A stretch of DNA of 64,000 nucleotides from Caldilineae bacterium (GCA_011176545.1 DUEN01000021.1:8662-72661), one strand, 5' to 3'. Positions 32,375 through 40,900 are shown, counted from the first letter of the stretch. Numbers and translations: made by a program. Notes: a model not told the origin generated them from the letters alone.

Positions 32375-34048
32375 ATGGTGGTTCAAAGACGTACCCTCCT
32401 TGTCATGGTCAGGCGAGGGGGTTGGCTCTTGGCCTTCGTGTTCCTGTCACTCGCCATCGCTGGCGACGTGTATGCACAGCCTCCTATTCCCACGATTCCG
32501 CATTCGCTGGAAGGCCGAGCCGCCTGTCTCGCTTGTCATGAGGCGGGCGTAGGCGGAGCCCCGGTGATTCCTGCCAACCACACGGGTCGCACCAACGAGA
32601 TGTGCACTACCTGTCACGTGGCCGCCAGCGAAGCGCCGCCTCAGCCACCTCTCATCCCTCATACGCTGGTCGGGCGCTCTGACTGTCTATTCTGTCACGA
32701 AAAGGGGGTCGGTGGAGCGACGGTGATCCCATCTGATCATGCGGGGCGCACGAGCGAGACGTGTCGGAATTGCCATCAGCCTGGCGCCCCCATAGAGGCG
32801 CCTCCCACACCTGCGGGGCCGCCGACGCCAACTCCCGTCCCCATCCCGACGCCCATCGTACACCCTGTGAGACGTGGGCAAAATACCTGTGCGACGTGCC
32901 ATCGGACGCTCGACGAGAAGCAGGCGCGTATCGTAGATGAGTGGGAGAAGAGCATTCACGCGGCTCGCAATGTTAGCTGTGCGGATTGCCATGGCGGCGA
33001 TCCGGGAGCTGAGGGGATCAATGAGTCTATGGCTCCTGCCGCAGGCTATATCGGCGTGCCGGATCGAGTGAAAGTCCCGGGGCTGTGCGCGTCTTGCCAC
33101 GCCGACCCGGTACGGATGCGCCAGTATGATCTGCCAACGGATCAATTCGCCAAGTATCAGGAGAGCATCCACGGACGCGCTCTGTATGAAAATGGCGATC
33201 CCAACGTGGCGACCTGCGTTGACTGTCACGGCTCTCACAAGGTCCCTGAGGTGAACGACCCCAGCGCCGACGTATACCCCATCAACGTGCCCAAGTTATG
33301 TGCTCGCTGTCACGCCGACGAGCAACTGATGGCCCCCTATGCGATCGCCACGAATCAGTACGATCTGTACCGGAAGAGTGTCCATGGCATCGCGTTGCTG
33401 GAACGTCAAGACCTGAGGGCTCCCAGTTGTGCGACGTGCCATGGCACGCACGGCGCAGCGCCACCGGGATTTGCCGAGGTGGCCAATGTCTGCGGTAGCT
33501 GCCATTCCGCCACTCAGGACTATTATGCACGGGGGGCACATGCCCAGGCCGGCGATGCTGGGCCCAAATGCGTCACGTGCCATGGACGCTATGACGTCAC
33601 CAAGCCCGATGAGAGCCTCTTCGTGGGAACGGAGGAGCGACATTGCGGAAATTGCCATCCTCCAGACTCGCCCATTGGAAAAGAGGTGGCCCAGATCAGA
33701 GAGGCCATCCTTGAGGCGGCCGCGACCCTGGCAAAGGCTGAAGAGCTAGTCTCCCAGGCCGCCAGCCGTGGCATGATCGTGGCTTATGAGGAGACGAAGT
33801 TATCGGAAGCCCGAACCGGGCTGATCTCTGCTCGAGCTGCCCAGCATCAGGTCGCGCTGGATGTGGTGACGAAGCTCACCGAGGCCAGCGTAGCCGCCAG
33901 TCAAGAGGTGATGGAAGCGGCCGAACAGAAGTTGCGGGAAAGTGTGTTCCGTCGTCAGGCGATGGTAGTCGCCGTAGTAGCCATCTCTATAACCGTCGGC
34001 GCCCTGTATAGCATCAAACGAGAACTGGATCGGCGACTTGAGCCATAG
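32375..34048 (+). CDS. 13-heme cytochrome c with a C-terminal membrane anchor, partner of the Rieske/cytochrome b complex
   Basis: Signal peptide; 13 CxxCH (two N-terminal diheme modules plus a nonaheme part); coiled coil; C-terminal TM. Confidence 0.88.
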   Translation: MVVQRRTLLVMVRRGGWLLAFVFLSLAIAGDVYAQPPIPTIPHSLEGRAACLACHEAGVGGAPVIPANHTGRTNEMCTTCHVAASEAPPQPPLIPHTLVGRSDCLFCHEKGVGGATVIPSDHAGRTSETCRNCHQPGAPIEAPPTPAGPPTPTPVPIPTPIVHPVRRGQNTCATCHRTLDEKQARIVDEWEKSIHAARNVSCADCHGGDPGAEGINESMAPAAGYIGVPDRVKVPGLCASCHADPVRMRQYDLPTDQFAKYQESIHGRALYENGDPNVATCVDCHGSHKVPEVNDPSADVYPINVPKLCARCHADEQLMAPYAIATNQYDLYRKSVHGIALLERQDLRAPSCATCHGTHGAAPPGFAEVANVCGSCHSATQDYYARGAHAQAGDAGPKCVTCHGRYDVTKPDESLFVGTEERHCGNCHPPDSPIGKEVAQIREAILEAAATLAKAEELVSQAASRGMIVAYEETKLSEARTGLISARAAQHQVALDVVTKLTEASVAASQEVMEAAEQKLRESVFRRQAMVVAVVAISITVGALYSIKRELDRRLEP

Positions 34049-34401
34049 GAGCCTAGCGATGGTAGGAGCCACTGACCCTAAATGGATGATTTGGTGTTAT
34101 CTGGGAAGTTGTGGCATGATTAAAGGGAAGGGAACCTCGGATTGTCCAATTTTGTTTCCAATTCGCCATCGCTTTAGAGCACCTCATGTAATGGTCAACC
34201 CATGGCGGCTTATGCCGCGCGGCAGGTCCCCACCGGGGTCTGCTGGCCATGGCAGGCGTTGCCGTGGCGAGAGTAGGAGGTGGTCTTCGACCAGACACGG
34301 CCAACGCTGGAAAGGGGGTGAGTCATTGCGCTGAAGAAGCTCTCTGCTTATGACGCTCTATCTTTCCCATCATAGCCATTCCTCAATAGTAAGGAGGGAA
34401 T

Positions 34402-38343: not shown

Positions 38344-38524
38344 TCGCTGGGATTCAAGGTGATGGCCGAAGCTTGACCTTCTATACTTCCTGAGGCATCT
38401 ATCTAATAGGAGGGACGGGTAGCGGAGGACACCGTCTTCAGCCATCTAAAGGACTACGTTAGGGGTCACCATCTGCATTCTCGGAGGATAAGCCTCAAGT
38501 CTCATCAACAAGGAGGGGAAAAGG

Positions 38525-40900
38525 TTGAACACGATCCTAACCACGCTGAGCTCCAATCGTACATATTTCTTTGTATTCGGTACCATCATCGTCATCGTGG
38601 TCGGATCCCTGCTTTTCGCTGGAGGTGTCACCGTCTGGGAATACACCAACAGCTCTGAGTTCTGCGGGACGACCTGCCACACGATGCCGCCGGAATATAC
38701 CGCCTACAAGATCTCACCCCATGCCCGCGTCCCATGTGTGGATTGTCACCTGGGCATGGAAAGCGTGCTCACCATTGTGCCGCGGAAGGTGAAGGAGGTC
38801 CGGCATGTCCTCTTCGCTCTGACTCAGAACTATGAGACACCTATCTACGTCAAAAGCCTGCGTCCCGCGCGATACACCTGCGAGAAGTGCCATAACCCCG
38901 AAAAGTTCTCCGACGATAGCCTGCGCGTGATCCGACACTACAGCACGGACGAGAAGAATAGCGAGACTCGAATCTATCTCGTGATGAAAACCGGCGGCGG
39001 GACCCGGCGCGAAGGACTGGGCAAGGGCATCCACTGGCATATCGAGAACGAGGTCTGGTATATCGCCACCGACGAGCATAAGCAGAACATCCCTTATGTA
39101 CGTCAGGTGGATGAGAACGGGCAGGTTATCGAGTATTTCGACGTGACAGCCGCTCTGCCGTCCGATTTCGTAGCCAGGAACAGTGATAAACTGCGTCGCA
39201 TGGACTGCATTGATTGTCACAATCGCATCTCTCACACGTTCCGCTCACCCGAGCGGGCCATGGATTGGGTCCTTTCCCGTCGGCTGATCGACAGGAATAT
39301 CCCCTACATCAAGGCAAAAGGGGTTGAGGTGCTCAGTGCGACGTATGAGAGTCACGACGAAGCAGCCGCGGCCATTGAGCGGCTTGAGGAATGGTATCGT
39401 GCCAATTATCCAGAGTGGTATCAGGTCCCCGATAATCAGGCGAAACTGAAAAAGGCTATCGAGGAGCTAAAGCGCATCTACTCGGAAACGGTCTTCCCGG
39501 AAATGGACGTAGGATGGGAGACCCATCCCGATAATATCGGACATCTCGAGTTCCCCGGATGTTTCCGGTGTCATGATGGGAAACACCTCAGCCCCCAGGA
39601 ACAAGCTATCCGACTGGAGTGTAACATCTGTCACTCCATCCCGGAGGTCGTAGGCCCTGGTGATCCTGCACCGGTCATCTCTGTGGAGAAGCCCAACGAG
39701 CCTGATTCGCACAAGGATACCCAATGGCTGGCCCGACACCGATTCGAGTTCGATCAGACTTGCACGGCGTGCCATGATGTGGCCAATCCTGGAGGAGCCG
39801 ATAACTCGAGTTTCTGCTCGAACAGTGCCTGCCATGGTGTCGAATGGAGATATGCGGGGCTGGATGCCCCGGCAATCGCCCAGAAGTTGAAGCCGGCGAA
39901 GGAGAAGGCGCCTATCGGGGTACCCGCACAGGTACCACATCCGGTGGGGCCACGCACGGACTGCGAGATCTGCCACGGGCTTCAGAAGGTACATCCTTAT
40001 CCAGAGAATCACACGCAATTCGATGCAACCCAGTGCACGGGTTGCCATCCGGTTATCCAGGAGGCCCTCATCGCACCCTCGGGGAGCCCAACGCCCGAGG
40101 CAGTTACTGGGCCCGCTCCCATTCCACACCCTCTGGAAGGCCGGGAGGATTGCCTAATCTGCCACGCGGTGGGTAGCGGTGTCAAACCGGCACCGCCAGA
40201 TCACGAGGGGCGCACATCAGATCTATGCCAAGCGTGTCACAAACCAGCGGCGACCCCGACGCCTGCGAGCGGTCGCCCCACCAACACACCGACACCCACA
40301 CCGGCGCAGCCCGTGAGCACGCCGACGCCCCAGGCAACCGTTGGGCCCGCCTCTATCCCCCATCCCCTGGAAGGTCGGGAGGACTGCCTGATCTGTCACG
40401 CCGTGGATAGCGCCGTGAAGCCAGCACCGCCAGATCACGAGGGGCGCACGTCAGATCTATGCCAAGTGTGTCACAAACCAGCGGCGACCCCGACGCCTGC
40501 GAGCGGTCGCCCCACCAACACACCGACACCCACACCGGCGCAGCCCGTGAGCACGCCGACACCTCAGGCAACCGTTGGGCCCGCCTCTATCCCCCATCCC
40601 CTGGAAGGTCGGGAGGACTGCCTGATCTGTCACGCCGTGGATAGCGCCGTGAAGCCAGCGCCCCCCGATCATGAGGGACGAACATCGGATCTGTGCCAGG
40701 CATGCCATGCAGCCGCCCCGACGTCCCAGGCTGGCGAGGAGGAAGTGGCCTCGCCACCAAGTATGCCACAGCACCCTCTAGAGGTTGGGGATGACTGTCT
40801 GCTTTGTCACGCGGTGGATAGTCAGCTCAAGCCCGCGCCTGAGGATCACGAGGGACGCTCCGTGGAGTCGTGTCAGGTGTGCCACAAACCCGAATCGTGA
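38525..40900 (+). CDS. NapC/NirT-family (ImcH-like) membrane quinol oxidoreductase with C-terminal diheme repeats
   Basis: N-terminal TM; TNSSEFCGTTCH, SPHARVPCVDCH, MDCIDCHNR and GCFRCHDG; 16 CxxCH plus CX3CH and CX4CH. Confidence 0.82.
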   Translation: MNTILTTLSSNRTYFFVFGTIIVIVVGSLLFAGGVTVWEYTNSSEFCGTTCHTMPPEYTAYKISPHARVPCVDCHLGMESVLTIVPRKVKEVRHVLFALTQNYETPIYVKSLRPARYTCEKCHNPEKFSDDSLRVIRHYSTDEKNSETRIYLVMKTGGGTRREGLGKGIHWHIENEVWYIATDEHKQNIPYVRQVDENGQVIEYFDVTAALPSDFVARNSDKLRRMDCIDCHNRISHTFRSPERAMDWVLSRRLIDRNIPYIKAKGVEVLSATYESHDEAAAAIERLEEWYRANYPEWYQVPDNQAKLKKAIEELKRIYSETVFPEMDVGWETHPDNIGHLEFPGCFRCHDGKHLSPQEQAIRLECNICHSIPEVVGPGDPAPVISVEKPNEPDSHKDTQWLARHRFEFDQTCTACHDVANPGGADNSSFCSNSACHGVEWRYAGLDAPAIAQKLKPAKEKAPIGVPAQVPHPVGPRTDCEICHGLQKVHPYPENHTQFDATQCTGCHPVIQEALIAPSGSPTPEAVTGPAPIPHPLEGREDCLICHAVGSGVKPAPPDHEGRTSDLCQACHKPAATPTPASGRPTNTPTPTPAQPVSTPTPQATVGPASIPHPLEGREDCLICHAVDSAVKPAPPDHEGRTSDLCQVCHKPAATPTPASGRPTNTPTPTPAQPVSTPTPQATVGPASIPHPLEGREDCLICHAVDSAVKPAPPDHEGRTSDLCQACHAAAPTSQAGEEEVASPPSMPQHPLEVGDDCLLCHAVDSQLKPAPEDHEGRSVESCQVCHKPES
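40108..40710 (+). repeat. 234-bp coding tandem duplication (~2.6 units) of a diheme module plus Pro/Thr linker
   Basis: Units start at ~40108, 40342 and 40576; the alternate-frame ORFs at 40225 and 40459 are near-identical and 234 bp apart. Confidence 0.9.

Follow-up and report, generated by a model that had tools for sequence, protein, structure and literature searches.

Here we describe a small diheme module that occurs eight times on three membrane-anchored proteins of a Caldilineae bacterium. All eight copies lie in one stretch of 64,000 nucleotides (nt; GCA_011176545.1 DUEN01000021.1:8662-72661), called the window below, with positions counted from its first letter; the assembly comprises 4.43 Mb in 239 contigs and is 92.7% complete with 5.6% contamination. 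The module is about 40 residues long, with the spacing H-x7-CxxCH-x10-13-H-x7-CxxCH. Our best reading, which as a whole we hold to be probable rather than secure, is that it forms a self-contained c-type domain predicted to bind two hemes through bis-His ligation. Based on sequence profiles, we concluded that it is homologous to the core of NapB with the loops trimmed away, although it falls outside the Pfam definition of that family. We also consider it reasonably likely that the copies act as a tethered electron relay, as beads on flexible leashes. The three carriers belong to a cytochrome cluster of ten + strand genes at 26616-40900:

32375..34048, + strand: carrier 1, a 557-amino-acid (aa) protein with 13 CxxCH motifs (the 13-heme protein), an N-terminal signal peptide and a C-terminal transmembrane (TM) helix
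36988..38343, + strand: carrier 2, a 451-aa FdnI/HydC-type cytochrome b (PF01292, E 6e-14) that continues into a linker, a module and a PSCyt1 domain
38525..40900, + strand: carrier 3, a 791-aa NapC/NrfH/ImcH-like protein with one N-terminal TM helix followed by five modules

The module copies are placed on them as follows:

32483..32626, + strand: diheme module 1, aa 37-84 of the 13-heme protein, long-loop subtype
32642..32785, + strand: diheme module 2, aa 90-137 of the 13-heme protein, long-loop subtype
37909..38046, + strand: diheme module 3, aa 308-353 of the cytochrome b, with a Pro/Thr linker of ~50 aa before it and the PSCyt1 monoheme domain after it
39920..40057, + strand: diheme module 4, aa 466-511 of the 791-aa protein, the first copy on this chain, divergent and lacking the Gly-Arg (GR) pair
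40109..40249, + strand: diheme module 5, aa 529-575 of the 791-aa protein, in tandem-repeat unit 1
40343..40483, + strand: diheme module 6, aa 607-653 of the 791-aa protein, in tandem-repeat unit 2
40577..40717, + strand: diheme module 7, aa 685-731 of the 791-aa protein, in tandem-repeat unit 3
40754..40894, + strand: diheme module 8, aa 744-790 of the 791-aa protein, the C-terminal copy

The copies were counted with a relaxed pattern (H-x5-9-CxxCH-x8-16-H-x5-10-CxxCH), which has exactly eight matches over the ten cluster proteins. These fall at aa 43-81 and 96-134 of the 557-aa 13-heme protein, at aa 314-350 of the 451-aa cytochrome b, and at aa 472-508, 535-572, 613-650, 691-728 and 750-787 of the 791-aa protein. 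The cluster's four other multiheme proteins, with 8, 9, 8 and 9 CxxCH motifs, contain no match. A sequence-only reading of this DNA had described the eight copies with a pattern of its own. Taken literally, as transcribed, that pattern fits only two of the eight; its N-terminal motif is really x-(I/V/M)-P-H, and the GR that it includes is absent from the first copy on the 791-aa protein, while the relaxed form fits 8/8. That first copy, module 4, is orthologous to the first copy of the corresponding protein in relatives.

Ten columns are invariant when the eight window copies are aligned. The profile built from this alignment found only those eight in the 4.43-Mb assembly, with E values of 1e-25 to 6e-21 (104 candidates scored at E<=0.01). 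Pattern and whole-genome profile therefore agree on eight copies on three proteins, a result far beyond chance and in line with what the sequence-only reading had proposed. The profile was built from the same eight copies that it recovers, which weakens it as evidence for the module; its independent support is that nothing else was found in the genome and that relatives were found elsewhere. Chance clustering of CxxCH motifs was also considered, and was ruled out by the E values of the genome profile, the conservation among 65 copies described below and the spread across the phylum. The Pro/Thr linkers reported around the modules are indeed there: the flanks are rich in Pro, Thr and Ala, and the linkers range from ~14 to ~50 residues, with 40-50 aa beside several copies and ~14 aa between both copies on the 13-heme protein.

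We aligned the eight window copies with 57 copies from 20 loci of class relatives. Across these 65 copies there is no variation at H7, C15, C18, H19, C40, C43 and H44, and conservation reaches 90% or more at P29 and H32, so that the two extra His noted earlier in each module are a conserved feature. The four conserved Cys and four conserved His appear to be what two bis-His c-type hemes would require. AlphaFold2 modelled module 6 alone (47 residues, with the 65-copy alignment) at a mean predicted local distance difference test (pLDDT) of 95.5 and a predicted template modelling score (pTM) of 0.72, and an isolated copy is thus predicted to fold autonomously. Two adjacent modules (modules 1-2 of the 13-heme protein) gave a pLDDT of 91.5 and a pTM of 0.55, pointing to a confidently predicted fold in either copy and to doubt about how neighbours are oriented to each other. 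The module also behaves as the discrete, portable domain that had been suggested, being isolated between long disordered linkers and, in some proteins, making up the whole chain. Against the heme assignment, the ligands are placed by conservation, and the AlphaFold2 models contain no heme; a predicted complex of two module copies with four hemes (score 0.00, mark 0.42) spoke neither for nor against binding.

NapB is the diheme electron-transfer subunit of periplasmic nitrate reductase. It is fed by the NapC quinol dehydrogenase, works docked on NapA, and in its structures holds two stacked bis-His hemes. Like NapB, the module is predicted to be a small electron-transfer diheme unit, and it shares the order P-(I/V)-P-H, CxxCH, P-x-H, CxxCH-x-P. 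We compared the 65-copy profile with single sequences using hhalign. E. coli NapB, taken from the K-12 record, aligned over 46/46 columns (Prob 96.1%, E 2.9e-9, score 46.6), with PPMIPH, CLQCH, SPTH and CLQCH in register and three extra loops in NapB. A Chloroflexota NapB likewise aligned over 46/46 columns (Prob 95.9%, E 5.9e-9). Six multiheme controls (E. coli NapC, the four other multiheme cluster proteins and the non-module part of the 13-heme protein) gave weaker, partial matches of 12-37 columns (Prob 22.6-65.1%, E 6e-5 to 9e-4) that never included the first His. A resemblance to NapB that had been called loose is, in this comparison, a full-length profile match to two NapBs.

There are also clear differences. 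The module has about 40 residues, compared to about 90 in the mature core of NapB, and the NapB insertions in the hhalign alignments amount to 6, 4-6 and 11-12 residues. Unlike NapB, which is a free or docked subunit, the module is not found beside napA and comes fused, repeated and tethered. NapB takes electrons from NapC/NirT-type quinol dehydrogenases, and the modules are fused to NapC-type carriers. In the accessible text of one study, overproduced Shewanella NapB drains the pool of quinol by way of CymA, TorC and bc1 and promotes the reduction of extracellular acceptors (PMC5114592); these donors are of the same kinds as the module's fusion partners here.

Searching PDB sequences with the profile gave MtrA, OcwA and three NapB chains as the best matches (first module half, E 0.004-0.011), and no full-length match to the module among all PDB sequences. 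A structure search of the ESM Atlas aligned three NapB-family clusters to a single module, below the Atlas's own bar. Other searches gave no support for a relationship with NapB. Foldseek against the PDB returned nothing at E<=0.001 for a one- or two-module model, the rows listed being unrelated, and VIA-align placed 0 of 48161 chains at Z>=2 for either model. The Pfam NapB family (PF03892) scored 11.3 and 11.4 bits (E 0.38 and 0.36) for two of the eight modules and gave no row for the other six, with the gathering threshold at 25.1 bits; a PF03892 search of the whole genome had no match at E<=0.001. Because structural matches are nil, the NapB relationship is drawn from sequence profiles and the sub-threshold Atlas rows. 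The models are heme-less, small and mostly coil, and are probably beyond the reach of structure aligners, so that the null says nothing on NapB either way.

Homology to NapB would also fit a dedicated reductase adaptor, with the modules feeding a single terminal enzyme, soluble or bound to the wall, instead of a general relay; a molybdoenzyme would be one candidate, and the HAO-like octaheme protein (26616-28079), whose gene heads the cluster, another. We find this very improbable. The cluster has no NapA-like gene, and the only match to the Molybdopterin family (PF00384) among the scanned open reading frames (ORFs) of the window, a scan that left out small ORFs and a few larger ones, is the NuoG-like subunit of NADH dehydrogenase. 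In three relatives, module genes that stand alone are surrounded by unrelated housekeeping genes, which hint at no partner, and the fusion partners described below are diverse. Canonical NapB, scored as a PF03892 match, is present in only 2/401 sampled genomes of the phylum versus 35/401 for the module.

The Chloroflexota NapB of the hhalign comparison comes from one of these two genomes (locus L121, 1213-1794). It has a lipobox-like LLWGC and a Pro/Ala-rich stretch of ~90 aa ahead of its diheme core, and the classical NapB of this phylum appears to be tethered as well. The gene lies directly 3' of the C-terminal part of a molybdopterin enzyme, which we read as NapA, and the genome that encodes it has 17 module matches.

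Beyond the window, we searched a library of 1.84 billion representative proteins with the eight-copy profile. The library contained 1227 matching proteins at E<=1e-3, 560 at <=1e-10 and 122 at <=1e-30. Among the best 150 hits, the relaxed pattern assigns every CxxCH to modules in many proteins; for example, the twelve CxxCH of the 407-aa library protein P0002 make up six modules. Linkers between modules number 355 in the top hits, with a median length of 20 aa and a composition of 21% Pro, 19% Ala and 12% Thr. An N-terminal hydrophobic stretch is present in 78 of 128 seemingly N-complete hits, and was not relied on since signal peptide and anchor are indistinguishable there. We scanned for fusion partners in the 58 of the best 150 hits that have at least 380 aa. 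They include Cytochrom_NNT (the NapC/NirT N-terminal family; 12), FdnI-type Ni_hydr_CYTB (7), class-I cytochrome c domains (13) and PSCyt1 (2), together with surface-type domains found in single proteins each: HYR plus PKD, Big_13, CBM96 and a fibronectin-type domain (fn3). NapC-type and FdnI-type carriers thus recur in the representative library, which bears out the portability that had been proposed for the module.

The densest arrays could instead point to a capacitor, with the modules chiefly storing electrons and buffering supply and demand at the membrane surface under intermittent acceptors. Heme density is high, reaching 25 relaxed-pattern matches and 56 CxxCH in one 1693-aa library protein, and copy number shifts through tandem duplication. 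However, storage needs no long extended linkers, and some arrays end in the CBM96, PKD/HYR and Big_13 wall- or surface-type domains, suggesting that a distance is spanned. Storage and relay can coexist, but as the chief function we think storage quite unlikely.

The module family is real but patchy. It is present in 17 of 41 genomes of the organism's class at E<=1e-3. In an even sample drawn within the phylum, with up to 17 candidates scored per genome, it was found at E<=1e-6 in 35/401 genomes, corresponding to 25/322 high-quality genomes and 27/218 genera. In class relatives, orthologues of each of the three window carriers bear it, as do small proteins of 163-257 aa and orthologues of the 9-heme subunit, in which one or three modules raise the CxxCH count from 9 to 11 or 18. 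Each ingredient is already known singly: multiheme modules repeated on linkers, c-type carriers that are fused or anchored, and NapB itself. A literature search, with subscription journals mostly uncovered, returned neither NapB-like module arrays nor this domain on Chloroflexota quinol oxidases. The combination not found in print is a NapB-like unit of ~40 residues that occurs in repeats on Pro/Thr leashes and is joined to three kinds of Chloroflexota membrane protein that oxidise quinol.

Among known families, Paired_CXXCH_1 (PF09699) was the best Pfam row for six of the eight single modules and spans profile positions 3-38 of 41. Three modules score above its cut-off of 20.6 bits (22.8, 22.3 and 21.7) and five below it (18.5 to 11.0). 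On whole carriers it scored 62.5 and 35.4 bits, with no row for the cytochrome b carrier. The family also matches heme pairs of these proteins that are unrelated to the module, its best stretch in the 13-heme protein (aa 350-380) being outside the modules. Most library hits, as whole proteins, are above the family threshold. The TIGR01905 model gave 16.3 bits for the 13-heme protein, below its 25.2 cut-off, and no row for the 791-aa protein. The module sits at the edge of Paired_CXXCH_1. Unlike the module, the "doubled CXXCH" of PF09699 and TIGR01905 is a broad motif that gives no boundaries, ligands or role, and a sharply defined domain can now be separated from what the "doubled CXXCH" and "cytochrome c3 family" annotations lump together.

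Having several small multiheme units in a row on a single chain is a trait shared with the Geobacter c7-type triheme polymers (TIGR04257, "nanowire_3heme"), and multiheme modules joined by flexible linkers are discussed in the available text of PMC11492766. Unlike the c7 polymers, the modules are diheme rather than triheme, their linkers, rich in Pro/Thr, are far longer, and quinol-oxidising membrane proteins carry the arrays as fusions. TIGR04257 (cut-off 40 bits) gave no row for the three carriers, and 17.8 and 16.1 bits for two other cluster proteins. Tethered or fused c-type cytochromes include cytochrome cy, the extra heme domain of TorC and the fused diheme cytochrome c of Actinobacteria bc complexes. 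As with the module, a small heme domain is kept at the membrane and stands in for a soluble carrier. These have class-I mono- or diheme folds in one copy, whereas the modules are NapB-like diheme units with predicted bis-His ligation, present at 1-5 per window carrier and in far higher number in certain library proteins.

The gene for carrier 1 lies directly 3' of the Rieske, cytochrome b6 and subunit IV genes. The copy that had been assigned to a cytochrome b subunit is there on carrier 2, and this subunit is of the FdnI/HydC type (PF01292), not the cytochrome b6 of the Rieske complex. Immediately upstream lies the following gene:

35880-36986, + strand: a 368-aa 9-heme c-type cytochrome with nine CxxCH and a C-terminal TM helix

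The 9-heme gene adjoins the cytochrome b gene, always upstream, in every one of 80 related loci that holds both. A 9-heme cytochrome with an FdnI/HydC-type cytochrome b is also the make-up of CbcL as described in the accessible text of PMC6295460, and by this description the two window proteins would form a split CbcL-like pair. Unlike CbcL, the pair is encoded by two genes rather than as one polypeptide, and the cytochrome b bears the extra NapB-like module.

Carrier 3 had been called ImcH-like, a label that suits it in part. It has a CX3CH motif (CGTTCH) at aa 47 after the TM helix, a CX4CH at aa 431, and six CxxCH ahead of the modules (aa 71, 119, 228, 346, 366 and 413). The CX3CH beside the TM segment and the six CxxCH agree with features of ImcH in the available text of PMC6295460, which includes an Anaerolinea thermophila homologue with one TM helix. 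Unlike Geobacter ImcH, compared here by description only, carrier 3 has one hydrophobic helix (read by eye) in place of three N-terminal TM helices, and it bears the extra NapB-like modules. It also matches NrfH, NapC and TorC models, with 53 bits for the NrfH model and E 8.4e-7 for the NrfH chain 2j7a_C.

The central copies on carrier 3 lie in a tandem repeat:

40088..40789, + strand: three tandem 234-nt units, each comprising one module and its Pro/Thr linker

Units 2 and 3 share 88% and 62% nt identity with unit 1, and the three modules are 89-94% identical in aa among themselves. Five copies on this protein is the count given by the assembly, which places three near-identical repeats at the centre. 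Logan contigs of four public runs that contain this gene neither cover nor bridge 40264-40395 inside the repeat; in all four they end at 40177-40263 or earlier and resume at 40396. Subsurface and marine metagenome are the labels of those runs in which two thirds or more of the sampled words occur. A relative of the same genus also has five copies, in an 838-aa open frame.

Using the whole cytochrome b as query, we confirmed 160 related stretches and kept 80 loci. The cytochrome b relatives all come from metagenome-assembled genomes labelled Anaerolineae, Anaerolineales or Chloroflexota. The usual order in these loci is 9-heme protein, cytochrome b and NapC-like protein; next there are often a Rieske protein, cytochrome b6 and a subunit IV that has a 7-heme domain fused to it. 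No module is found on 108 of the 111 cytochrome b homologue ORFs, many of which have only the CxxCH of PSCyt1, nor on 48 of the 51 NapC-like ORFs, which when complete typically have ~570 aa and 7 CxxCH; the 9-heme homologues in these loci have it in 0/107. Module-bearing loci are the three closest only, with 61-71% identity in the two carriers; their cytochrome b has a single copy and their NapC-like protein has two or four. On these comparisons the modules were added to older carriers.

Each window copy is closest to the same-position copy of the same carrier in other genomes. Copies on different carriers have 33-48% identity to the first copy, and a 13-residue central loop is present in 12/12 copies on orthologues of the 13-heme protein. 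Since the copies group by carrier and position rather than by genome, the fusions are old and carrier-specific, with the tandem duplication as the only recent event. This grouping rules out a recent shuffling of one module among the three carriers. It also speaks against the earlier idea of a common output adaptor for all three branches, as does the low identity between carriers, and the idea is further disfavoured by the lack of any module in most Anaerolineales carrier orthologues. Instead, three different quinol-oxidising proteins in one lineage each gained a domain of this kind, every carrier with a subtype of its own.

Fixed interfaces would likewise lead one to expect subtypes that are tied to a carrier and keep their position from genome to genome. 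In such a static wire, an immobile chain of hemes, the modules would be docked on fixed partners (other modules, the 9- or 13-heme domains, or the stalked octaheme and nonaheme proteins of the cluster), with the Pro/Thr segments as assembly loops or leashes. NapB itself acts as a docked subunit, and short linkers do exist, with ~14 aa on the 13-heme protein and short gaps in 16 adjacent pairs in relatives. However, the pTM falls from 0.72 for one module to 0.55 for two, 40-50-aa linkers flank several copies, and some proteins are modules alone. The copy number among orthologues within one family ranges from 2 to 5, which is hard to square with a fixed stoichiometry. We therefore regard a static wire as unlikely.

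The reading that we prefer, the tethered relay, takes account of the cell envelope. No Omp85/BamA match was found in the 92.7%-complete genome, and the same search was positive in 7 of 14 named control genomes; it follows that the organism probably has no closed periplasm. Chloroflexi are described as presumably monoderm in the accessible text of PMC5808234. A soluble cytochrome would be lost from a monoderm cell, and a carrier fused to its donor by a leash therefore makes sense. The earlier suggestion that tethering replaces diffusible carriers is accordingly a reasonable one, given that no Omp85/BamA was found in the genome.

In this relay, the modules would be exported and matured on the outer face of the membrane, where they would hang by Pro/Thr-rich leashes from three membrane-anchored proteins. 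These carriers are predicted to oxidise quinol or to receive electrons from that step, and the heme domain of each would then hand electrons to its modules. Onward transfer would proceed by tethered diffusion and collision, from bead to bead or to the other stalked multiheme proteins of the cluster, and charge would thereby leave the membrane into or across the cell wall. Tandem duplication would adjust the length of the array, with copy number setting its reach.

Some points count against the relay. Electrons cannot cross a disordered linker of 20-40 aa, so the relay requires collisions, which here are presumed. The case for a monoderm cell depends on the absence of a single marker from an assembly that is incomplete and has 5.6% contamination. 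Finally, most relatives manage without the modules, which are therefore accessory.

At its furthest extent, the relay could become a redox-polymer brush, in which arrays of dozens of NapB-like beads, leashed to quinol oxidases of the membrane and sometimes held at their distal end by wall-binding domains, would trade electrons by collision and so form a conductive wall in outer-membrane-less Chloroflexota. We advance this only tentatively and think it rather doubtful. If true, it would be a third route of extracellular electron transfer beside porin-cytochrome conduits and cytochrome filaments, with a reach tuned through tandem duplication of the bead-plus-linker unit. Electron export from the membrane in bacteria without an outer membrane is poorly understood, and the cytochromes of Chloroflexota, which are abundant in sediments and the subsurface, are almost unstudied. 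A self-folding two-heme unit of 40 residues would be near the smallest conceivable c-type heme domain and a handy block for designed electron wires, and the link to NapB supplies a relative with solved structures and known partners.

The remaining genes of the cytochrome cluster are:

26616-28079, + strand: the HAO-like octaheme protein, first gene of the cluster, with 8 CxxCH
28243-30273, + strand: a stalked nonaheme protein of 676 aa with 9 CxxCH
30520-31095, + strand: the Rieske protein, 5' of the 13-heme gene
31201-31956, + strand: cytochrome b6, 5' of the 13-heme gene
31922-32359, + strand: subunit IV, a separate 145-aa protein, followed by the 13-heme gene
34402-35634, + strand: an octaheme protein of 410 aa with 8 CxxCH

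The HAO-like protein matches "Multi-haem_cyto" (PF13447, E 5e-29), and its 80 bits with the hydrazine dehydrogenase model are far under the 900-bit cut-off. Anammox bacteria have Rieske/cytochrome b clusters with HAO-like genes, and the HAO-like octaheme gene beside Rieske and cytochrome b6 genes here recalls them. The nonaheme protein begins with a lipobox-like LSIGC (the Cys identified by eye) and ~7 PTPTPVP repeats, after which there are weak PKD-like matches and a match to MtrC/MtrF domain II/IV. The 410-aa octaheme protein has a 37-aa collagen-like (GPP) stretch behind its N-terminal hydrophobic segment (Pfam Collagen, 28 bits, E 1.9e-6), which could be a rigid triple-helical stalk. In its homologues in relatives, the alignment begins at residue 69.

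The arrangement of the neighbouring subunits varies among relatives. In most Anaerolineales relatives (L050-L054, L064, L069 and others), subunit IV is fused to the ~7-heme domain in a protein of ~700 aa, compared to the unfused 145-aa subunit and following 13-heme gene of the window (31922-34048). Two consecutive pairs of 9-heme protein and FdnI-type cytochrome b occur in L051, L072, L074, L075, L081 and ~20 more loci, and the first cytochrome b of these is short (~250-370 aa) and without a c-type heme motif.

Complex I genes, a Fur regulator with a metal ABC transporter, lgt, a subtilase and a Tad pilus locus surround the cluster. The subtilase (41025-45635) is a 1536-aa S8 protein with a CBM96 domain at its end. 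CBM96 also ends library protein P0029 (1700 aa), which opens with a NapC-like part and further contains module copies and six class-I cytochrome c domains; in these organisms the CBM96 domain may act as a wall anchor. The Tad/Flp-type pilus locus, on the minus strand at 48976-57853 and downstream of the cytochrome cluster, encodes a T2SSE ATPase, two T2SSF proteins, a TadE/G-like VWA protein and a SAF-domain protein.

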